This document shows positions 5,837 through 24,326 of a DNA stretch of 24,908 bases, one piece after another. Each line of letters begins with the position of its first letter. Position 1 is the stretch's first letter. The stretch is taken from NCBI GenBank assembly GCA_018238625.1, contig JABCSY010000057.1, positions 1-24,908 of the forward strand, in the 5' to 3' direction. The notes under the pieces were generated by a model. The model was given only the letters and a program-made list of their open reading frames with translations. It was not told where the DNA came from and searched no databases. The position numbers and the translations under genes were made by a program. This stretch comes from Promethearchaeota archaeon. Its GTDB lineage: Archaea > Asgardarchaeota > Lokiarchaeia > Sigyniarchaeales > SOKP01.

Positions 5837-6328
5837 ATGAGCCAAATTAATTACGACAAAATTATCTCACAATTGAAAACGGAGTTAAATTCTGAATGTG
5901 CAATAGCAAGCAGATATGGAATTATATTAGGATCGACTATAAAAGGATTTGCTAAAGGAAAAGTTATCCCTCATAAAATCCTTTCGGTTATCGCTAATTC
6001 GAAAGACATAGCTGACGAATTGAATTTAGCTAAAATAAATTCCTTTGCGTTAGAGGCTCAAGAGTATAACTACCTTTTTACATTCACGACCGAATTAATT
6101 TTGATATCAAAGTTAAGCTTAGATATGAATTTGGCAAAGTACATGCCCAGTATTAGCGTGTTTTTGAAGAAATTGAGCGAGAGTTTTACGGCTCAAGAAA
6201 TAAGCGATTTTTCAGTTTTTGATTTTTCTAAAGAAATTCAAAAAATTGAAGAAACTTTTAAGAAAAAGAAAGGAAAAGATAAGAAATATTCAATAATTAA
6301 AGATCTTGTGAAATATGTAGCGAAATAA
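5837..6328 (+). CDS. Roadblock/LC7-like small protein
   Basis: Helix followed by CAIASRYGIILGSTI (roadblock-like beta hairpin), small size, directly upstream of a small-GTPase gene. Confidence 0.6.
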   Translation: MSQINYDKIISQLKTELNSECAIASRYGIILGSTIKGFAKGKVIPHKILSVIANSKDIADELNLAKINSFALEAQEYNYLFTFTTELILISKLSLDMNLAKYMPSISVFLKKLSESFTAQEISDFSVFDFSKEIQKIEETFKKKKGKDKKYSIIKDLVKYVAK

Positions 6329-6367
6329 AGAAGTTTTTATGTATAAATAATTAATTTAGTATGTATT

Positions 6368-6373
6368 AGGTGA
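6368..6373 (+). promoter_or_regulatory. Shine-Dalgarno-like motif AGGTGA
   Basis: Archaeal SD consensus (GGTGA) 3-6 nt before in-frame ATT/ATC codons of the GTPase gene. Confidence 0.55.
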
Positions 6374-6376
6374 AAT

Positions 6377-8494
6377 ATTATCTTAAGAGCAGTTTATATT
6401 TATAATCAGGGTAAATTGTTATATCATCGGCATTTTGGAAAAGCCCTTAAGGATGACGTTTTCAATTCTTTAGTAGTAGATCTAATGAAGGAAGCTTTCG
6501 CTAAAAGAGGTAAAAGCGTAGAATATCACGATTACTACAAATACCGAATATCCTACATTACAAAAAAAGATTCGGAATTAATGTTTTTATTCGTTACAGG
6601 TTTAACTGATAATTTCGAGAATATCAAAAAAGAACTAATTAAATGCAAAAAAGAATTTTTAAACCTGTTTGAAGACCTACTAGATCATAAAATTGACGAT
6701 AAAACATTTGAAATATTCGATCCAACTATAGATGCGGTTCATAGAAATTTAAGACCAAAAATATCGCTCATAGGATTTTCTGGCGTTGGAAAAACTACGA
6801 TAACGCGACTAATTAAAGCAGAGGAAATCCCCATGCAACACATCCCAACTATTACTGGAGACATAGCTACAATTAAAATCGGGAAATTACATTTTCATTT
6901 GTGGGATTTTGCTGGACAAGAGCAATTTAGTTATTTGTGGAACAATTTTATTAAGGGAAGCGATGCTGTTTTATTAATCACCGATTCTAGTTTAGAGAAC
7001 GTAGAAAAAAGCAAGTTTTTCTTGGAACTAATAAAAGAACAAGCTCCTCAAGCACATACGTCTGTTATTGGCAATAAACAAGACCTAGACAATGCAATGA
7101 AACCAGAACAAATTGAAAAAATAATAGGATTAAAAACATATTCTATGATTGCTAAAGATAGCAACAATCGGGATAAAATGATAACTATTATTGCTGATGT
7201 ATTAGAAATGAGCGCTGAGGTTTCGCCTCTATTAAAACCATTACTGGAAAGAGATACATTTATGGAAGAAGCGGCAAAAGCATTGGAAAACGCAGAGTTT
7301 GGTAAAGCTGCTACATTTTTCGATAAAATTAGCTATTTATGTATAGAGCTAGGAGATGATTCTTTAGGCAAAGAATTTTATGAAAAATCTCAAAAAATTA
7401 AAAGTATGCTCCAAAAACTTAGCGCTCCTCAACCGGTACCTCAAGAAAAACCTAAAATCGCTGAATCGTCAGCACCATCAGAAGAGCCTACTAAACCCGT
7501 AGAGGAAATTAAAGTAAACAAGCCAATTATTCCTGAACCCAAAAAACTTGAAGAACAAGAAAAACCAAAGGTACCAATAGCTGTTCCCCCTCCTCCTCCT
7601 CCTCCTCCACCACCTCTTGGACCTTCTAAAATACCAGAAGCATCAAAAAACGAAATGGGTCTTAAAAAACCGTCTATACCGCCAGCGCCGAGAACAATAA
7701 AAAAGCCAAAGTTCATTGAAAAAACTGTTGTTCCTCCACATCCCGAAAAGTCAGCACCACCAAAAATTCCAAAAACTAAAGAACCAGAACCCGAAAAAGC
7801 GGGTTTTAAAAAAATCGAAGAAGAAAAAGAAACATCCGAACCTGAAGCGTTGATCAAGCCTAATATTCCACAAGAAAAAGTGGAATTAGCCTTAAACCCA
7901 GAAGACTTTATGGTAAAACCACGCCCGAAAACGGTAACAATTGTTCCTAAAGACGCTAAAAACAAATTAAGAACTTCGCCTTTTGCCCAAGTTACTAACC
8001 CAACGAAATCTAATATACCCGTTCCAGTTTCGCCAACAAAATTAATAAAAGCTAAACCACCTGGTAGTTTTACTCCAACTAAAAAAATTAATGCGCCTTC
8101 AAAAGATTTTGGTGTCCCGAAAGAGACTACGCACCCGCCTACTCCAGTTAGTCCAACAGAACTTATAAAACCTAAAGCTAAAGTTGCTGCAGTAACACCT
8201 TCAAAAACACTAAACATCGAGACCTCTACAACGACGCAAAAAACAGCGGAACCTACAGTTCAAGCTACTTCTACCGCGATTTCTATAGAACAAAAGGCCA
8301 ATTTAGAAAAATCTTTGATGGACTTAAAAATTAAAAAAGCTAATATTTCTAAGATGTCGTTGGACTTCGACATGAAAGAACTGACGGGAGAGATTACAAG
8401 CGAAGAACTTGAAGAGAAAAAGAGTAAAATGGAAGCGATCAAAGCAGACCTCAACCAACAAATTAAAGAATTGGAACAACTTTTAAAGGAATAA
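6377..8494 (+). CDS. Longin-like domain + Arf-like small GTPase + helical region + proline-rich linker + C-terminal coiled coil
   Basis: G1 GFSGVGKTT, G2 IPTI, G3 WDFAGQEQFSYLW (Arf-like), G4 NKQD. N-terminus (I)LRAVYIYNQGKLLYHRHF is longin beta1-beta2-like; the frame is open from 6374, upstream of the tracked TTG at 6416. Contains a P10 tract. Start coordinate uncertain. Confidence 0.85.
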   Translation: MILRAVYIYNQGKLLYHRHFGKALKDDVFNSLVVDLMKEAFAKRGKSVEYHDYYKYRISYITKKDSELMFLFVTGLTDNFENIKKELIKCKKEFLNLFEDLLDHKIDDKTFEIFDPTIDAVHRNLRPKISLIGFSGVGKTTITRLIKAEEIPMQHIPTITGDIATIKIGKLHFHLWDFAGQEQFSYLWNNFIKGSDAVLLITDSSLENVEKSKFFLELIKEQAPQAHTSVIGNKQDLDNAMKPEQIEKIIGLKTYSMIAKDSNNRDKMITIIADVLEMSAEVSPLLKPLLERDTFMEEAAKALENAEFGKAATFFDKISYLCIELGDDSLGKEFYEKSQKIKSMLQKLSAPQPVPQEKPKIAESSAPSEEPTKPVEEIKVNKPIIPEPKKLEEQEKPKVPIAVPPPPPPPPPPLGPSKIPEASKNEMGLKKPSIPPAPRTIKKPKFIEKTVVPPHPEKSAPPKIPKTKEPEPEKAGFKKIEEEKETSEPEALIKPNIPQEKVELALNPEDFMVKPRPKTVTIVPKDAKNKLRTSPFAQVTNPTKSNIPVPVSPTKLIKAKPPGSFTPTKKINAPSKDFGVPKETTHPPTPVSPTELIKPKAKVAAVTPSKTLNIETSTTTQKTAEPTVQATSTAISIEQKANLEKSLMDLKIKKANISKMSLDFDMKELTGEITSEELEEKKSKMEAIKADLNQQIKELEQLLKE
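7586..7615 (+). repeat. (CCN)10 triplet repeat encoding 10 prolines
   Basis: ccc (cct)6 cca cca cct, in frame. Confidence 0.95.
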
Positions 8495-10208: not shown

Positions 10209-10736
10209 TTATTGAGTTCTTTTCTCGATAATTCTACGAGTAAGCTCAGTAAAAGCCTCATCTACGTTAATACCTGTTTTAGCTGAGGTTTCAATGTATA
10301 TGCTACCCTCGCTTTCGGCTAACGCTCTCGCCTCGTCCCGATCGATAACTTCGCCAACATCCTTCAGTAGGTCGTGTTTATTTCCAATTAGTACAAACGG
10401 TATGTCTTGACCAGCAAACTGACGGATTTCTGTTAACCACTTTCTTACCTCAATGTAGGTTTGTTCTCTTGTTAAATCAAAAACTAGCAAAGCTCCTGCG
10501 GCGCCTTTATAAAATGTCGAACGTATGAACTCAAATCGTTGTTGTCCGCCGATATCCCATATTGAAAGGGTTGCAACTTCGCTGGGCTTGAACTCAACGT
10601 CTTTGGTTAGGATATCTACTCCAACGGTGAGCTTGTAGTTAGCCGCAAAACGATTCTTGATAAATCTCTGAACGAGACTTGTCTTTCCGACAGCGGCGGC
10701 GCCAGTTAGCAATACTTTTAATTTAAAACTTGACAT
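10209..10736 (-). CDS. Rab-like small GTPase (Ras superfamily)
   Basis: GAAAVGKTS, TVGVDI, WDIGGQQRF, FYKGAAGALLVFD, GNKHD, ETSAKTG. No C-terminal Cys prenylation motif. Confidence 0.95.
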   Translation of the reverse strand: MSSFKLKVLLTGAAAVGKTSLVQRFIKNRFAANYKLTVGVDILTKDVEFKPSEVATLSIWDIGGQQRFEFIRSTFYKGAAGALLVFDLTREQTYIEVRKWLTEIRQFAGQDIPFVLIGNKHDLLKDVGEVIDRDEARALAESEGSIYIETSAKTGINVDEAFTELTRRIIEKRTQ

Positions 10737-13153: not shown

Positions 13154-16100
13154 ATGGAGAATAATGAAGCGTTAGCTCAAGAAGCTGTAAGATACTTAAG
13201 CTTAGCCCAGAGATTTGAACAGGAAGGTCAAATAGAAAAGGCTATAGAACATTATGGGGTTGCTGCGGAATATCTTAAAAATAGCGGGTACTTGATGCAG
13301 AGAATTGATGAGATTTATTCTCGAATTGAGGAATTAAAAAGGTTCGTTAAGCAAGAGATTTTCTATCGCCAAGAGCATTCCAGAGCTCAAGTTGAACAAA
13401 TACAAGAACAAGCGTTTTCTTTATTAGATGGAGCTCAAAAATTAGAATCTGATGGATTTCTTGAAGACGCAATTGGCCAATATATGTCAGCAATTAAATT
13501 ATTGGTTCAATCCGGATGGACTGAAACTCAATTAGAGAATTTGAAGAGTAAAATATCTGTTCTCGCGGGAAATTTGGAACGGCAAAAAAGAATTCAAACA
13601 CAAAAAGTAATTGAACCTCAACAATTAGAAACTGAACCTCAACAATTAGAAACTGAGCCTCAGGTTGTTGGCGCGTTTGGCAAAAAGAAAATTGCTTCAA
13701 AAGCAGAAGAACTGAAAAGATATAGAGAAGCCAAACAACGAGAAGAACAGATTGAAACCGATGCTTTTGCGTTTATTGACAATGCAAAGTTTTTCGAAAA
13801 AGACAATAAATTTGATGAAGCGATAGAGAACTACGAAAATGCCATTGAACTATTAAACTTAATAGGATGGCAAACCCAGACGCAAAATATAGCGCTAATA
13901 GTTCAAAAATTAAGAAAGGACAAAAAAGAATTTGAAATGATTAAGACACAGAAGCCTTTAGAACGAAGATTAATAAAAGGGGAAGTTGAAATTAAAGGAT
14001 TCGATGAATTAGAGCTCGAAGAGTTTAAAAAGGACGAAGAAAAGATTCAAATAAACGCGTTCAACCTAATAGATATAGGAAAAAAGCTAGAGCGAGAAAA
14101 AAAATACGATAAAGCAATAGCTAAGTACGAAAAAGCAATAGAATTACTTAAATCCATAGAATGGGATTCTTACATTCAACCTGTCGTTAATTTTATTAAA
14201 AGCATAGAAGAGAAACAAAGATATGAGGAAAAAACTGAAAGTCTGAAACTAAAGAGAGAAACCGATTTAAAAAGTCTACAAGACAAAATCTTCTTAAAAG
14301 AAAGAGAAGAGATTGTACAAACAGCAAAAGAGTTAGAACAAAAAAGATTACAATTTGAACAAAAAAGAAGAAAAGAAACAAGAAAAGAGAACGAATTTTT
14401 CACGACTCTAGATAATGCCGATAAGATTTTAAAGGAAACTAACGATTTTAATAAATCTATTGTAGAATATCAAAAAGCTTTAGAACTTTTAAAAGGTTTA
14501 GGAGCGGGTTGGGGATCGTATGCGGGAACAATTAAAGCTACAATATCTAGTATCAACACACTAAAAGAAACTCAGATAGAGAAAGAATTGGAACAACAAA
14601 AGAAATCAGAGCGGCGAAGTAAAGCTGATCTAGAATTCCAACAACAAATATCAATAGAATTAGCAAAGGAACGAGAGAGTATTAAACAAAGGGCAATTGC
14701 GTTAGATTTAAAAAGAGACGAAATAGAATATAGAGAACAACGTAAAGACGCTGCTTTTAAGGCTTTAGAAGAAGCAGAAGAATACATAAATCAATCTAAG
14801 CTAGATAACGCGATATTAGCTTATCAAACGGCTGGTAACATATTTGCGGGCATCCACTGGGACGAAGAACTACATTTAATTGAAGACTCCATAAGAAATC
14901 TTGAAAGTAGGAAAAGAGAGCAATCCTTTAGGAAGCAAAAGGATTTACAGAGATCTATTGATAGATATAAAACAGAGCAATCGTTTCAGAAAAAAATATC
15001 CAAGCAATTACGAGAAGAGCGTGAGAGATTAAGTAAAAGAGAGATAAATATAAGAGAACGAGATGCAGAATTAGAACATCGAGAAAGGAGAAAGGAAGAA
15101 GCTTTTAAAGTGTTAGGCGAAGCGCAGAAGTTATTAGAAAAAGGAAATTACGAAAAAGTTATAGAATTATATCAATTAGCAACAAATATTTTTGCAGAAA
15201 TTCAATGGTATGATGAAGTTGAAAAAATAGGAAATGCTATTGTTGAGATAGAAAATAAAAAGCATGAGACTATAATTAAAAAGCAAAGGGAAACCTTAGC
15301 TCTCATTGAAAAAGAAAGAGAGGATAGAGCGTTCCAAGAGAGTACAATTAAAGAAATGAAAGCTCAAAGAGAAAAGCTAAAACAAAAAGAGATTATCTTC
15401 AGAGAACGCGAAAACGAAGTCCTGTTTAGAGAAAAGCGAAAAGAAGAAGCTTTTAAAATACTAGAAGAAGCGCAGAATTTTCTTTCTTTAGGGGAGTTTG
15501 ATATGGCAATTGAAAGCTATAGAAATGTAAGCGAAATCTTTGCTCAAATTCAATGGGTAGAAGAACTACCGTTGATTAAACAAGCTATTAGCGATATAGA
15601 AATAAAAAAGAAAGAGAAAGAACTATGGAAACAAAAAGCGTTTCAAGAAGCGATAAAAAAAGAAACAGATAACAGGCAATTTCTTGACCACATCAAACGT
15701 CAACGAGAAATTGAAAAAATTAAAATACAAAAAAAGAAGGAATTATTTGTAGAAAAGAAAGAATTAATTGCAGAAACCGTATCAAAAGAGAAAGAGGCAT
15801 TCAGGATTATTGACGAAGCTGACATTTTATTAAGACAAGAAAGCTTTGACGAAGCTTTACGATCTTATGATAACGCTCTTAGCTTATTAAATCACATTGG
15901 ATGGACAGGGAGTTATATGACCTTATTAGAAGATACGATTCGATTAATCCAGTTTAAAAAGAAAGAAAAAGATCAGAGAATTAAACGAGAAAAGGAACAT
16001 TTAAAAAAACAAATAGACGACGAAAGAGATTTCGAGAGAAATATAGCTGAGCGTCTTCAAAGTGAAAAAGACAGGATGATATCGAAGAAAATTGAGCTTC

Positions 16101-18100
16101 GAAAAAGGGAAGATTTAGTAAAATATATGGAACTACGTAAATTAGAAGCTTTTAAAATTATGGATAAAGCAGAAACATTATTAAAGCAAGGGTTATATGA
16201 GCGCGCTATAGACATGTATTATCAAGCAGAGTTAATTTTAACTCAAATTCAATTCCCAACGGATACAATTAAAGAAATGATTCGTAAGGTTCAAGAGAAA
16301 AAGCGCAAAGATGATTTAGCAAAACAACACAAATTTGAGCTCACATTAAAAAAAACTGAGGAAGAAAAACATTTTCAACAAACTATTGTTGAAAGCATGA
16401 AGTACGAAGAAGAAAAAATGAAAGCGAAACAAATCAAACTTAAAGAACGAGAAGATTTAAAAATCTATATGGAAAAGCGTAAAGACATTGCCTTTGAAAT
16501 ATTTGATGAAGCCAATGCCTTTATAAAACAAGGAAAATACGATAAAGCGCTTGAATATTATAGAAGTGCGGAATTAATATTAAACGAAATCCAATTTCCA
16601 ACAGACTCAATTAAGGAATTAATCGCTAAAGTCAACGAGAAAAAACGAGAACATGAATTGCAAAAACAAAAAGGATTGGAATTTAAAGTTCAAAAGGAGC
16701 GCGAAGAAATCGAGTTTCAAAAGAAAGTTGCTGATGATATAAGAAAAAAAAAAGAGCGCCTAAAATTAAAACAGATCGAAGTTGGAAATTTAGAATTATT
16801 ACAAGCCAAACTTGAAAAGAGAAAAGATGAGGCTTTTCTGGTTTTAGAAAAAGCAGAGCATTATATTAATAGATTAGAGTATGATCTAGCTATTGTAAGC
16901 TATAGAAAAGCAATGCTAATTTTGAACGAAATCCAATTTCCAACAGATTCTATTAACAACATGATTGAAAAAGTAATCAATCTTAAAAAGCAAAAAGATC
17001 TTAACGAACAACATAAATTACAAAGAGAATTAGAAAGGCTTAAAGAAGAGAAACATTTACAAGAAATATTAGAAGAGAGAAAAAATCAAGAAAAAGAGAA
17101 AAAGATTGCGCAACAGTTAGCTCTTCAACAAAGGGAAAGAGTTGTGCAAGATCAATTAACTAACAGAGAGGCCGCTTATTCCCTCCTTGAAGAAGGTGTA
17201 GAATATCTTAAGAGAGGAGTTCCTAATTTTGACAAAGCAATATCGTTGTATATTCAAGCAAGAGATTTACTATCCGAAAAGATTGGTTGGGAACCTGAAA
17301 TTAATAATTTAAATCTATTGATAAAAGATCTCATTCAACAGAAAGCAGATTATGTGGAAAAGAAAAGATTGGAAGCAGAGACTAAAATTAAGAGGCAGCG
17401 AGAGTATGAAGTTTTTAGAGAAGAGATTCAAAAACAACGTATGGAATACGAAATAAAAAAAAGACAGCAACAACTAAAGGTAAAAAGATTATTCGAATCT
17501 AAACGAGATGCGGAGATAACTAAAGAGAAGGGTTTAAGGCTAATAGACGAGGGAAAACAGGCTGCAATCATATATGACTTTAAAGAAGCATATAAAAAGT
17601 TCAACGGAGCAATTGAAAAGTTTAAACAGATTGGATGGATTGAACAAATAAAATATATTCAAAAAGAGATTGAAAATACTCGACTCCTTGAACAAAGAAC
17701 AAAAGAAGAAGATTTGAAAATCCAAAAAATTCGCAAAGATTTAGAAATTCAAAGAAGAAAGAAAGAGCGCCAAGTAAAAGAAGAAGAAATAAAATTAAAA
17801 GCGGTAGTTGGAGAAGTTAGCGGTTTATCTGTTGAAATTTCGAAGTTAATTGAAATTAAAAAGCAAAAAGATGAGTTGAAAGCCCAACATAAAAGTAAAC
17901 AAATCGTATCCGAGTCAAAAGAATTTCGAAAGGATATGAGTGAATTTCTTGATTTGAAGCAGGATCTTATGAAAGAATTATCGAAATCAAAAGATGATAC
18001 AGAGAAGAGAAAAGAAAAGCTCAAATTAGATAAAGATAAAGAAAAAGCGGACGAAATTAAGAAAATGCTTAGGGAAATATCGAAAAAAGAAAAAAAATAA
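13154..18100 (+). CDS. Giant helical repeat protein: 14 MIT/TPR-like helical modules separated by E/K/R-rich helical linkers
   Basis: Motif AFxxLxxAxxxxxxxxYxxAIxxYxxAxxLLxxIxW/F recurs 14 times; central period about 116 aa (e.g. gct codons at 14753, 15101, 15449). Confidence 0.85.
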   Translation: MENNEALAQEAVRYLSLAQRFEQEGQIEKAIEHYGVAAEYLKNSGYLMQRIDEIYSRIEELKRFVKQEIFYRQEHSRAQVEQIQEQAFSLLDGAQKLESDGFLEDAIGQYMSAIKLLVQSGWTETQLENLKSKISVLAGNLERQKRIQTQKVIEPQQLETEPQQLETEPQVVGAFGKKKIASKAEELKRYREAKQREEQIETDAFAFIDNAKFFEKDNKFDEAIENYENAIELLNLIGWQTQTQNIALIVQKLRKDKKEFEMIKTQKPLERRLIKGEVEIKGFDELELEEFKKDEEKIQINAFNLIDIGKKLEREKKYDKAIAKYEKAIELLKSIEWDSYIQPVVNFIKSIEEKQRYEEKTESLKLKRETDLKSLQDKIFLKEREEIVQTAKELEQKRLQFEQKRRKETRKENEFFTTLDNADKILKETNDFNKSIVEYQKALELLKGLGAGWGSYAGTIKATISSINTLKETQIEKELEQQKKSERRSKADLEFQQQISIELAKERESIKQRAIALDLKRDEIEYREQRKDAAFKALEEAEEYINQSKLDNAILAYQTAGNIFAGIHWDEELHLIEDSIRNLESRKREQSFRKQKDLQRSIDRYKTEQSFQKKISKQLREERERLSKREINIRERDAELEHRERRKEEAFKVLGEAQKLLEKGNYEKVIELYQLATNIFAEIQWYDEVEKIGNAIVEIENKKHETIIKKQRETLALIEKEREDRAFQESTIKEMKAQREKLKQKEIIFRERENEVLFREKRKEEAFKILEEAQNFLSLGEFDMAIESYRNVSEIFAQIQWVEELPLIKQAISDIEIKKKEKELWKQKAFQEAIKKETDNRQFLDHIKRQREIEKIKIQKKKELFVEKKELIAETVSKEKEAFRIIDEADILLRQESFDEALRSYDNALSLLNHIGWTGSYMTLLEDTIRLIQFKKKEKDQRIKREKEHLKKQIDDERDFERNIAERLQSEKDRMISKKIELRKREDLVKYMELRKLEAFKIMDKAETLLKQGLYERAIDMYYQAELILTQIQFPTDTIKEMIRKVQEKKRKDDLAKQHKFELTLKKTEEEKHFQQTIVESMKYEEEKMKAKQIKLKEREDLKIYMEKRKDIAFEIFDEANAFIKQGKYDKALEYYRSAELILNEIQFPTDSIKELIAKVNEKKREHELQKQKGLEFKVQKEREEIEFQKKVADDIRKKKERLKLKQIEVGNLELLQAKLEKRKDEAFLVLEKAEHYINRLEYDLAIVSYRKAMLILNEIQFPTDSINNMIEKVINLKKQKDLNEQHKLQRELERLKEEKHLQEILEERKNQEKEKKIAQQLALQQRERVVQDQLTNREAAYSLLEEGVEYLKRGVPNFDKAISLYIQARDLLSEKIGWEPEINNLNLLIKDLIQQKADYVEKKRLEAETKIKRQREYEVFREEIQKQRMEYEIKKRQQQLKVKRLFESKRDAEITKEKGLRLIDEGKQAAIIYDFKEAYKKFNGAIEKFKQIGWIEQIKYIQKEIENTRLLEQRTKEEDLKIQKIRKDLEIQRRKKERQVKEEEIKLKAVVGEVSGLSVEISKLIEIKKQKDELKAQHKSKQIVSESKEFRKDMSEFLDLKQDLMKELSKSKDDTEKRKEKLKLDKDKEKADEIKKMLREISKKEKK
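13613..13663 (+). repeat. 21-bp tandem repeat (about 2.4 copies) encoding EPQQLET
   Basis: gaacctcaacaattagaaact x2, followed by gagcctcag. Confidence 0.95.
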
Positions 18101-19720: not shown

Positions 19721-21298
19721 ATGACGGTAAACAAGGAAGATATCAAAAAATCGCGAATGTACGCGAGACAGCAATTAATTGACGGGTGGGACCAAGAGAT
19801 CGTTAGCAAAGGTTGCGTTATGATTGTTGGAGTTGGGGCTTTGGGTTGTGAAATAGCAAAAGACTTTGCCTTAATGGGAATTGGGAAAATAGTATTGGTA
19901 GATTTAGATACTATTGAAACGTCAAATCTTTCCCGTCAAATGTTGTTCAAGCCAGGCGATGAAGGTCGTCCTAAAGCAGAAGTAGCCGCAGAAAGGTTAA
20001 AGGAAATGAATCCTTTTTTAAACGTCGATTTTTACTTTGAAAAGCTCCAAAAATTAGAAATGTCGGTCTATGAAGAATGCGATGTTATTATTGCCGCTTT
20101 GGATAACTTTAACGCAAGGTTAGATTTGAATAAAATATCTTTAAGAATAAAAAAACCTATGGTAGAGGGAGGAACCGTAGGATTTGAAGGACACGTACAT
20201 ATTGTTATTCCAGAAGGTTCTGGTCTTCAATATAAAAAGAGAGAAATCGAGATCGAAAAAATTGTCGACAGTAAAATGTGGGAATTTGACAATCCGGAGT
20301 ACTTAGAAGCACAAAAGGAAATAGAGCAATTAGAATATTTAATTGATAGGTTAAAGCAAGAGAAACTTGAACCTTTTAGAAGATTAGTTAGAAAAAAAGT
20401 TGAAGAAGAATTTGATAAAAAATACGCTGGTAAAGTTTTGGATTTAACTCCTTGTTATCGTTGTATGGTTCCTATTCCACCTGCAGACGATAAATTGGTC
20501 GCAGCGTGTACTCTAAAAGGACTTCCTAGAAATAGGAATCACTGCGTTATAAAAGCAGAAGTACTATTCGAAAAAGAATACGGCTTTAAACCTGATATGA
20601 ACGTGGACGATGACGTAGTAAAACTGAAGGTTTTTGCTCAGAAAGAATTGATAGACTTAAGAAAGAGAGTGTTTGACGAAAATGTTTCTCCCGAAAAGTT
20701 AGAAAGCTTATCTCCTGAAGAAATTCAAGAATGGAAAGATAATATTAAAGATACTTTCGGATCTGATTATAAGTTCGAAGAAATGGAAAATATATTAGGG
20801 AATAAAATTGCAGCAATTCAATCCGTAAGTTCTATTATTTCTAGCATACAATCCCAAGAAGCGTTAAAATTGTTATTTCGAATGCATGGAAGAAATATTG
20901 GTCCTCCAATGGACCCTCCTTACATCAATTATAATGGGGTGTATGGACAATTCGACCATTTAGAGGTAATTAAAAGGGAAGATTGCCTTGCTTGTGGAGA
21001 CATTGAAGGAGAAGAAAATGTTCAAATCGTTGTCCCATTTGACGCAAACGTAGGTTATATTTTCAAAGCTATGAGAATAAGCGGGCATAATTTAGAACCT
21101 ATCCTATGGTTGATTACTAATGCAGTGAACAAAGATATGCTTTGGAATCCTTACATGAGCGGTGAGTTTAAAGACCCAACTATAAAATTGACAGCTCTAA
21201 AAATCAAAAATAACGATATTCTTACTCTCACTCCTCTAGGAAAGGCAAAAGTAGAATCAGAGATTAAAAAATACAATGTCGTAATTACCTACATGTAA
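19721..21298 (+). CDS. Ubiquitin-like activating enzyme E1 (ThiF family, Uba2/Uba3-like)
   Basis: YARQ, GVGALG, DLDTIETSNLSRQMLF, ALDNFNAR; Zn motifs CYRC and CLAC; catalytic-Cys region AACTLKGLPRNRNHC (Cys codon 20507-20509); C-terminal extension compatible with a ubiquitin-fold domain. Confidence 0.92.
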   Translation: MTVNKEDIKKSRMYARQQLIDGWDQEIVSKGCVMIVGVGALGCEIAKDFALMGIGKIVLVDLDTIETSNLSRQMLFKPGDEGRPKAEVAAERLKEMNPFLNVDFYFEKLQKLEMSVYEECDVIIAALDNFNARLDLNKISLRIKKPMVEGGTVGFEGHVHIVIPEGSGLQYKKREIEIEKIVDSKMWEFDNPEYLEAQKEIEQLEYLIDRLKQEKLEPFRRLVRKKVEEEFDKKYAGKVLDLTPCYRCMVPIPPADDKLVAACTLKGLPRNRNHCVIKAEVLFEKEYGFKPDMNVDDDVVKLKVFAQKELIDLRKRVFDENVSPEKLESLSPEEIQEWKDNIKDTFGSDYKFEEMENILGNKIAAIQSVSSIISSIQSQEALKLLFRMHGRNIGPPMDPPYINYNGVYGQFDHLEVIKREDCLACGDIEGEENVQIVVPFDANVGYIFKAMRISGHNLEPILWLITNAVNKDMLWNPYMSGEFKDPTIKLTALKIKNNDILTLTPLGKAKVESEIKKYNVVITYM

Positions 21299-23487: not shown

Positions 23488-23759
23488 TCAAAAATTAATT
23501 ATTTGCTTTAATCCAGTTAGTTTTATAAATATTTTTGTTATAAAAATTGAAGAAATAATCTTAATATCACTCTATTATTGATTAGTCTCAAAAAATAAGG
23601 GATAAATTTTTAAAAAGAAAATTAGACACAGATATGAATTGGTTAGAGATTAAGAGCTTTCTCTTAACAAAGAAATTACCTTAATATCCATTATATAGGT
23701 GAATTATTTTTTACCCTATTTAAATGTTTAAAGTAGGTTATTCTATAAAAAATAAGATT

Positions 23760-23778: not shown

Positions 23779-24326
23779 TTAATCCATGGCGTATTTTTTT
23801 GTCCAAGAGGCTGCTTTAGCTTGAAACTTTTTTAGAGCTCTAAAGTATTGTTCCCCTGCTTCATGGTTCAAAGGATCTCCTGGATTAAAAAAGGGCGGTT
23901 TTACGCATTATTACAAAGTGTAATTAATTCTACGTGCATCATGCCCTTTAAAGCCTCTATTATATTAGTTAGAGTCTTGCTCGGAGTCCAACCTGACGCC
24001 CCTGTCGAAGCGTCCACCTTTCCTACTAAATCGGGATTAATTAAATCTAAACAAATATTAAGCTTCCCGGGAGGTATGCTACTATCGATGTTTGGATGCC
24101 ACATCAATGTGACTGCGTAAGCGTAGGGAGGGGCAAACGGGTAATTCTCAGGGAACTTAATTTCGAAAATAAACTTTCCTTTATAATAAGGCGTTCCGTC
24201 TTTTCCGATGATTGTAAGCCGAAGGTGATCGATACTACGACCCCATGGTTCGATGATTATGTTACTATCGTCTTTGTACGATTCGATGGCTTCAGTATAA
24301 TCAGTTTCTTCTCTCATAATACTCAC
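23779..24326 (-). CDS. Ubiquitin-conjugating enzyme E2, split gene: join(complement 23930..24326, 23779..23900), 172 aa from GTG (169 aa from ATG 24317)
   Basis: GTPY..G.F..EIKFPENYPFAPP, HPNI, catalytic ICLDLI, GWTPS. After removing 23901-23929 the frame continues HVE-PPFFNPGDPLNHEAGEQYFRALKKFQAKAASWTKKYAMD*, the canonical E2 C-terminus (DPLN.EA...W...YA). Confidence 0.93.
23901..23929 (-). other. Putative 29-nt bulge-helix-bulge/loop (tRNA-type) intron in E2 mRNA
   Basis: Intron AAUUAAUUACACUUUGUAAUAAUGCGUAA. 4-bp helix ACGU/GCGU, 3-nt bulge AG^A, second site AA^A, inner stem AUU-AUUACA/UGUAAU-AAU, outer exon-exon stem AAAGGGC/GCCCUUU. Excision restores the reading frame. Confidence 0.8.

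Follow-up and report, generated by a model that had tools for sequence, protein, structure and literature searches.

A gene for a ubiquitin-conjugating enzyme (E2) in a Lokiarchaeia/Promethearchaeia archaeon (genome G000) carries a 29-nt insertion that is probably a tRNA-type intron in mRNA, kept and spread by homing. The gene lies in the window, the whole 24,908-nt stretch of contig C185 that we analysed. What can be read in the DNA is the insert with its geometry and the covariation that links it to the exons, an intact exon 2, genes for EndA and RtcB, and the remnant of a nuclease gene beside E2. An earlier note on this stretch had proposed the intron; its account of the locus holds for the intron and had missed the nuclease remnant, the further E2 sites and the signs of horizontal spread.

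The interrupted E2 gene and its probable splice register

As the earlier note had stated, the E2 open reading frame stops early: it runs from ATG 24317 (minus strand) to a premature stop at 23901–23903, and the conserved E2 C-terminus continues in another frame to the stop at 23779–23781 (minus strand). Deleting 23901–23929 restores the frame, also as claimed there, and gives a 169-residue protein that matches intron-less orthologues. Close homologues of the window ORF are E2 enzymes named Lokiarchaeota or Promethearchaeota, mostly of 169 residues. Exon 1 matches only positions 14–108 of the 140 in the Pfam model UQ_con, and its residues 1–130 are 95% identical to protein P0001, while exon 2 is 88% identical to residues 129–169 of the same protein (Table 1). 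The ORF finder places the start at GTG 24326 (minus strand) and orthologues point to ATG 24317; the GTG is part of a ribosome-binding-like element (24317–24326, minus strand).

Table 1. Features of the E2 locus, in positions of the window
Feature	Position	Strand	Remarks
E2 exon 1	23930..24317	-	388 nt; codons 1–129 plus one base; contains the catalytic Cys motif
29-nt bulge-helix-loop intron (putative)	23901..23929	-	CDS nt 388/389, within the Glu130 codon; nine more alleles at this site
E2 exon 2	23779..23900	-	122 nt including stop; C-terminal part of the UBC fold
Central helix, exon strand (H)	23932..23935	-	
Central helix, intron strand (H')	23903..23906	-	Both-side changes in 2 of 4 pairs, 10 alleles
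Outer exon-exon stem, 5' arm	23943..23949	-	7/7 pairs in 9/10 site-388 versus 5/100 intron-less alleles
Outer exon-exon stem, 3' arm	23890..23896	-	Pairs with 23943–23949
GIY-YIG gene, 3' remnant	23604..23684	+	Last 26 codons plus stop; free-standing, convergent to E2, downstream

Four other genes of the window were noted. A ThiF/E1-family gene at 19721–21298 (plus strand), with a long insertion in its domain, lies 2.5 kb from E2 and is often near E2 in relatives; the others encode a small-GTPase-domain protein with a long proline-rich tail (6416–8494, named by eye), a Rab-like GTPase (10209–10736, named by eye) and a 1648-residue repeat-rich helical protein (13154–18100), whose in-frame 21-nt tandem duplication at 13631–13651 is absent from genome G016.

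An assembly artefact might be suspected in a genome of 201 contigs with 7.6% contamination and two copies of the E2 region. Against this, genome G026 has the same insert with a single change (28/29 identical), genome G097 has a near-identical one (27/30), and a gap-free contig of the independent run X1 (probably DNA) crosses the insertion. Because of the G026 insert and the X1 contig the insertion is no assembly error, and we regard the probability of an artefact as negligible.

Homology alone allows three equivalent 29-nt deletions, starting at 23899, 23900 or 23901. Among 11 registers compared, a 4/4 central helix forms only in 23901–23929, and this register was picked because the helix rule selects among the homology-equivalent deletions. 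This refines the earlier contention that the structure-predicted cuts and the homology-required deletion coincide independently. Outer stem, central helix and intron hairpin all lie where that note had placed them; the 3' site sits in an internal loop, which makes the motif a bulge-helix-loop (BHL) and not a strict BHB. The drawn bulge structure fared less well as a single fold: in the window allele its central helix has pair probabilities of 0.88–0.94 and its bulge-closing pairs 0.24–0.47, and at -13.9 kcal/mol it lies 0.6 kcal/mol above the minimum-free-energy fold (-14.5 kcal/mol). The window fold gave a modest z of -2.0 against shuffles, 7 of 200 being equally good. Given this energy gap and the modest z, a single sequence could not settle the fold, and the strength of the case lies in the comparison of alleles.

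Across the 10 alleles with an intron at CDS nt 388 (site 388), 97.1% of 140 cells are paired, compared with 40–66% in slid registers. Double-sided changes occur in 7 of the 14 pairs (20 cells) against 0 of 500 shuffles, in a control that keeps relatedness in. The first base of the 3' outer-stem arm is a synonymous G in 8/10 site-388 alleles and in 0/100 intron-less ones. Two other classes of element were tried and rejected: GT...AG ends within 3 nt of the junction occur in 2/29 insertions only, unlike a spliceosomal intron, and a target-site duplication or flank copy spans only 0–2 nt in 27/29, unlike a transposon footprint or tandem duplication. On all the features that could be tested, the insert is a BHL intron resembling that of cbf5.

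Among the 10 site-388 alleles, from five genera, the pN/pS of exon 2 is 0.13, close to the 0.11 of 25 sampled intron-less alleles. Past the intron sites the joined frames remain intact. To judge from these ratios exon 2 stays under purifying selection, and the relaxed selection that the earlier note had named as a countersign is not seen. These results bear on the possibility that the insert is not removed, so that E2 is a pseudogene or a truncated E2 is made. Such a product would keep the catalytic Cys, which lies within exon 1, and an E2 orthologue was not found in five genomes rated 92–100% complete (G017, G035, G110, G139 and G156), where a DNA search also found no heavily interrupted E2 copy; because these five gave no orthologue, we do not claim that E2 is essential. 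The low pN/pS over five genera and the intact downstream frames nevertheless argue against a dead or shortened gene, as does the interruption of both E2 copies in G000, and compensatory pairing would make no sense in a pseudogene. We therefore hold this reading to be very unlikely.

Ribosomes are known to bypass inserts during translation in T4 gene 60 and mitochondrial byps. A ribosome hopping over the insert, or frameshifting, would fit its similar size and hairpin, and 29 nt downstream the window allele offers a Val codon that matches. However, the hop in the window would make residue 130 a Lys, whereas this position is Glu in 93 and Asp in 7 of 100 intron-less alleles. Codon pairs that match occur in 5/29 inserts and are compatible with homology in 2/29, the window allele not among them. 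Bypassing also makes no prediction of an exon-intron helix fixed two bases from each junction, and appears extremely improbable.

G000 encodes two EndA paralogues, located on C58 and C7 (loci L039 and L040), and RtcB. Crenarchaeal alpha subunits are the nearest relatives of the catalytic paralogue, EndA alpha, whose alignment with Aeropyrum-type chains extends to the lysine in the loop (3p1z_B, E 8e-35). Crenarchaeal-type EndA loops have been tied to relaxed substrates, BHL motifs included (PMC12397907), and we infer a broad-specificity two-subunit EndA with such a loop. In the proposed pathway, the pre-mRNA would fold into the bulge-helix-loop, the two-subunit EndA would cut at 23930/23929 and 23901/23900, and ligation of the exons by RtcB would yield full-length E2. 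The register, the covariation, the conservation of exon 2, the machinery and the failing rivals together support the EndA/RtcB reading of the earlier note, and splicing of the E2 pre-mRNA by these enzymes is very probable. Zero coverage of the E2 region was found in the RNA runs X2–X4, which says nothing on expression.

Putative introns at other E2 sites and in other genes

An E2 orthologue was found in 115 of 135 family genomes, uninterrupted in 98, interrupted in 16 (17 copies) and cut at a contig end in one; viral contigs yielded no E2 relative. We analysed 130 E2 loci, including metagenome loci taken as the best 80 of 178 matches, a choice that favours uninterrupted genes; genome and metagenome loci may overlap. 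Seven duplicate loci were removed, and three spurious gaps, caused by contig ends or by flank without homology (L029, L070), were excluded before scoring. In L070 (G092:C201:1-310) E2 is without its first ~30 codons and the end of an unrelated ORF precedes it, owing either to chimeric assembly or to insertion. Insertions interrupt 24 of the 130 loci (metagenome part, best 80 of 178): 32 insertions of 29–39 nt at eight sites, CDS nt 169, 171, 193, 222, 380, 388, 436 and 480, with at most three per copy. The site-388 alleles come from nine genomes of five genera and one metagenome locus.

The splice geometry recurs across these sites. Scoring covered 29 distinct insertions and excludes L152 and L154, both of which were in the intron-less profile used for register scoring. 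The full 4/4 central helix in a homology-compatible register is present in 23 of the 29, against a mean of 0.86 (maximum 4 in 2000) for shuffled introns and 6 on the opposite strand under generous scoring. Other offsets give 0–3 of 29, a comparison in which offset 0 is favoured since it was picked as the best homology-compatible register; where homology alone fixes the register, 6 of 11 insertions have the 4/4 helix. All 26 frame-breaking or stop-carrying insertions have at least 3/4 of the central helix, the 3-nt bulge is closed by an intron helix with at least 5/6 closing pairs in 23/29, and the 3' bulge starts with A in 29/29. In an alignment of orthologues the earlier note had expected intron-less alleles alongside variable introns that keep the helix. 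The nt-380 family (three distinct sequences, in frame and stop-free) has a canonical helix of 1/4. In this 30-nt insert (L031, L146, L148, L149) the canonical helix is broken and the hairpin kept; its splice motif may be relaxed, or the intron may be on its way to being kept as 10 additional residues.

Both E2 copies in G000 are interrupted, the second (C91:7604-8200; L031) by three 30-nt introns at sites other than that of the window. Contigs C91 and C185 are 86–92% identical where they overlap; G000 probably mixes two populations, C91 belonging to the co-binned one.

The spread of sites bears on whether the intron is kept as a regulatory switch coupling ubiquitin conjugation to EndA/RtcB activity. 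The Ire1-spliced XBP1/HAC1 intron uses the same ligase family and is of similar size, and this likeness and the marginal stability of the window allele lend the idea some appeal. A switch should be conserved, whereas the orthologue is uninterrupted in 98/115 family genomes and the sites vary and are scattered on the tree. We consider a regulatory role highly improbable.

The same 4/4 design recurs in a tRNA gene on C91, whose T-loop holds a 29-nt insert; ARAGORN calls the tRNA only after removal of this insert. This gene (probably Tyr, ~13204-13360, T-loop insert 13317-13345) has two inserts in all, the other an anticodon intron of uncertain extent, and was missed by ARAGORN and Rfam; Rfam gave no match in three loci, the interrupted tRNA among them. 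ARAGORN finds 19 tRNAs only in G000, which is 98% complete, and more may be hidden. The gene for this tRNA stands directly upstream of E2 in many relatives.

For protein genes G000 was set against 1.02 Mb of G016 and 0.72 Mb of G023, with a counterpart for 752 of 3524 G000 ORFs; this census recovered 117 of 150 planted inserts. The intron-like inserts that it found in G000 were confined to E2 and a thiolase-like gene, two genes that also carry such inserts in G023. The G000 thiolase-like gene (named by eye) has one 30-nt stop-bearing BHL intron (G000:C71:40540-40569, plus strand), and that of G023 (L237 ~7200-7271) two inserts (~28 and ~31 nt) at sites unlike those in G000. Three of 458 genes in G016 carry intron-like inserts, each a frameshifting BHL-like intron on the minus strand within a conserved motif: a Rad51/RadA-like gene (L176:7501-7531), a 4Fe-4S ferredoxin-domain gene (L181:3304-3332) and an NAD-dependent sugar epimerase gene (L175:7169-7199). 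LAGLIDADG-like fragments (motif by eye; no Pfam hit) lie upstream of the ferredoxin-gene intron, and the intron-less G000 orthologue is without them.

The introns are gene-specific hot spots and not genome-wide. The overlooked class of tiny introns suggested by the earlier note does extend to six other genes of the family, but it is rare per genome, at ~0.3–0.7% of compared genes (roughly 10–30 genes per genome by extrapolation), and piled up in hot-spot genes. That note had also suggested scanning the genome for the same motif; a de novo scan of G000 gave 950 hits, 168 of them frame-breaking, mostly A+T-rich noise, and recovered just one of the known E2 introns.

A GIY-YIG nuclease beside E2 and signs of horizontal spread

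The nuclease remnant downstream of E2 (Table 1) is 84% identical to residues 474–498 of a 499-aa ORF on G000:C91, and an X1 contig extends beyond 23604 into what, read by eye, are the preceding nuclease codons. On C91 this intact GIY-YIG ORF (6010–7509) is convergent to E2, and beyond it comes a displaced copy of the E2 3' end, the two together occupying 5904–7509 (L235). Mobile ORF elements of fungal mitochondria replace the 3' end of their host gene, without an intron, and the C91 nuclease similarly lies between a recoded E2 3' end and the displaced copy. Relatives occupy the equivalent place in G157 and four metagenome loci, one of them cut by a contig end and one decayed.

The nuclease was identified from a domain model, PHROGs and weak Atlas/BFVD leads; Pfam, sequence searches against solved structures and Foldseek with a full-length low-confidence model did not identify it. 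The domain model (pLDDT 85) best matches I-TevI (Z 10.4, rmsd 2.0, 89 residues aligned), the next match having Z 6.9, and 7 of 12 members match a PHROG homing-endonuclease family. The family keeps the Tyr, Tyr-Gly, Glu and Asn positions that we take to be those of the GIY-YIG motif. A single-sequence nuclease query against the genome contigs found none, and the nuclease profile matched 11 of 135 genomes: three at E2, three beside a small membrane-protein gene and five with no intron detected beside them. Further nuclease-like genes occur in G000 on C12, C177 and C69. A GIY-YIG domain of the same family lies near the end of giant ORFs in L258 (G007) and L262 (G141), with open frames of 1364 and 1557 aa, and in L260 (G092) and L261 (G064) a GIY-YIG gene stands at the 5' end of a uppP-like gene (by eye), in opposite relative orientations, with no intron seen.

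A nuclease or remnant lies within 1.5 kb of E2 at 9 of the 24 loci with introns and at 1 of the 106 without (metagenome part, best 80 of 178), with flanks of similar length. The nine include a more distant GIY-YIG and an HNH-like ORF (motif by eye), both upstream of E2. The Fisher P of 5e-7 overstates the association, since the nine positive loci are not independent, being related and falling into three nuclease families rather than nine events; the nuclease queries were also taken from the same E2 flanks in which they were counted. Of 81 flank clusters, 58 and about 10 more were run through Pfam and the rest judged by eye; of the 58, 28 gave no Pfam match. Each of the seven alleles that have the downstream GIY-YIG family carries an intron at either nt 380 or nt 388, and none carries both; the two with an upstream nuclease have introns at nt 171 and 222. 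We place the putative nuclease target in the nt 380/388 region because alleles with the downstream family always carry one of those introns.

A second gene was found from the nuclease search alone, with introns in 7 of 30 loci. It encodes a 105-aa membrane protein and has 31–32 nt introns at up to four positions near its 3' end (7/30 genus loci, L269–L298); an intron-less form is G000:C123:29801-30118, and a larger GIY-YIG stands beside the gene in three loci. The nuclease adjoins three of the seven intron-bearing loci, one remnant occurs among the 23 others, and all three full-length nucleases at this gene adjoin introns.

The exon sequence around the intron has a history of its own. Compared with its genus-mate G016, the window E2 differs at 17 of 112 synonymous codons over nt 0–360 (flanking genes, 12–15%) but at 13 of 25 near the intron; compared with G026, 29 of 111 differ in the first stretch and 1 of 25 in the second. 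The window intron is 27/30 identical to that of G097, from another genus, where CDS identity is 73%, and presence at site 388 requires eight changes for 10 alleles on the gene tree. These patterns suggest that the intron travels with foreign exon sequence, by co-conversion and horizontal spread. Selection on the outer stem may explain part of the shared synonymous exon bases, and the E2 gene is mosaic elsewhere too, beyond the surroundings of the intron.

In the homing mechanism that we propose, a free-standing GIY-YIG nuclease would cut intron-less E2 alleles at about CDS nt 375–400 when the DNA of two cells meets. An intron would split the target and protect its own allele, and repair of the break would carry the nuclease, the intron and adjoining exon sequence over to the recipient, a process known as collaborative homing. 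With its targets exhausted the nuclease would decay, as in the window, and the intron would persist since it would be spliced out; several nucleases striking the conserved E2 could have produced the eight intron sites.

Alternatively, the intron may be a true EndA substrate with which the nuclease is not partnered. Introns would then arise at pre-existing mRNA stems and move by reverse splicing or ordinary recombination, and nucleases would merely share the hot spot or be displaced, once intron-encoded enzymes. Consistent with this, 15 of the 24 E2 loci with introns lack a nuclease within 1.5 kb; the thiolase, radA-like and epimerase introns have no nuclease-like neighbour (ORF lists, by eye), and many introns are framed by long exon-exon stems. 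Against homing also speak one LAGLIDADG gene next to an intron-less E2 and the 5 of 11 GIY-YIG family members for which no nearby intron was detected. Introns in cbf5 may derive by deletion from ORF-bearing introns (PMC2738675), and nuclease turnover has been offered as an origin (PMC10448857). Yet at all sites in the 130 loci (metagenome part, best 80 of 178) the introns are 29–39 nt only, with no long ORF-bearing form; intron position tracks the side on which the nuclease lies, and full-length nucleases at the second gene adjoin introns in every case. A search of G000 with 16-mer seeds also found no intron copies elsewhere except three A+T-rich hits. On this balance an unpartnered nuclease seems unlikely, if far from negligible. 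Given splicing, we judge collaborative homing with the nuclease to be rather likely; taken overall, the evidence moderately favours an intron that is protected from, and spreads with, the nuclease.

Known systems and implications for Lokiarchaeia

The closest precedent is the cbf5 pre-mRNA intron of Desulfurococcales and Sulfolobales (16–44 nt), which likewise lies in coding sequence, has a relaxed BHB motif and is cut after the second bulge base by a hetero-oligomeric EndA (PMC2738675); it is the only coding-region BHB intron named in the open literature searched (PMC7714728). It differs in having one ancient site, vertical inheritance with losses and cDNA-proven splicing (PMC2738675), whereas the E2 introns, known from sequence, fall at eight sites within 510 nt, with as many as three in one copy, and are patchy, apparently cross-genus and nuclease-linked. 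Archaeal rRNA BHB introns are also EndA-spliced and are made mobile by a homing nuclease, but they carry that nuclease inside the intron and their host gene is rRNA (PMC2738675, PMC6125680).

In its arrangement the locus resembles the collaborative homing of F-CphI and an ORF-less group I intron in psbA of cyanophage S-PM2, where a free-standing nuclease gene adjoins a conserved gene and a nuclease-less intron occupies the presumed target (PMC6083498, PMC10448857). The S-PM2 intron is a self-splicing ribozyme in a phage, with cleavage and protection assayed (PMC6083498, PMC10448857), whereas E2 would have a 29-nt host-spliced hairpin on an apparently archaeal chromosome and a GIY-YIG enzyme that is predicted to cut. 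Asgard non-canonical tRNA introns share short BHB-type structure, repeated gain, absence from annotation and two EndA paralogues (bioRxiv 10.64898/2026.10.13.758758; PMC11291895). The available text of these works treats tRNA genes, and 'mRNA' occurs 0 times in the main text of the preprint (bioRxiv 10.64898/2026.10.13.758758; PMC11291895), which reports no general arrival route (bioRxiv 10.64898/2026.10.13.758758); in E2 the host is an mRNA and an arrival route is proposed. How such introns originate and spread is treated as an open question in PMC2738675 and bioRxiv 10.64898/2026.10.13.758758. In the main texts of the open literature we found no account of mRNA introns in Asgard archaea, nor of BHB mini-introns that have free-standing nucleases as partners.

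What the E2 locus contributes is the eight sites in one eukaryotic-signature gene, the 130-locus contrast (metagenome part, best 80 of 178), the conversion tracts, the second intron gene found from the nuclease side and the predicted nuclease target. The locus lends itself to a precise test, since it pairs a single small nuclease with a target predicted at ~25 bp and with natural introns at two sites 8 nt from each other: the site-380 and site-388 introns should each block the nuclease if the homing reading is true.

Asgard eukaryotic-signature genes called truncated or pseudogenes may be intact, which would affect inventories of the ubiquitin system. We suggest, tentatively and with slightly less than even confidence, that conserved protein genes of Lokiarchaeia come under repeated attack from free-standing homing nucleases, and that cells escape through 30-nt hairpins that are removed by the tRNA-splicing machinery and spread between genera with the nuclease. 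This could amount to an ongoing proliferation of introns with neither ribozyme nor spliceosome, perhaps in 10–30 mis-called genes per genome. The E2 introns are not thereby ancestors of spliceosomal introns, since the chemistry differs. If true, the finding would mean that introns proliferate in coding genes of close prokaryotic relatives of eukaryotes.
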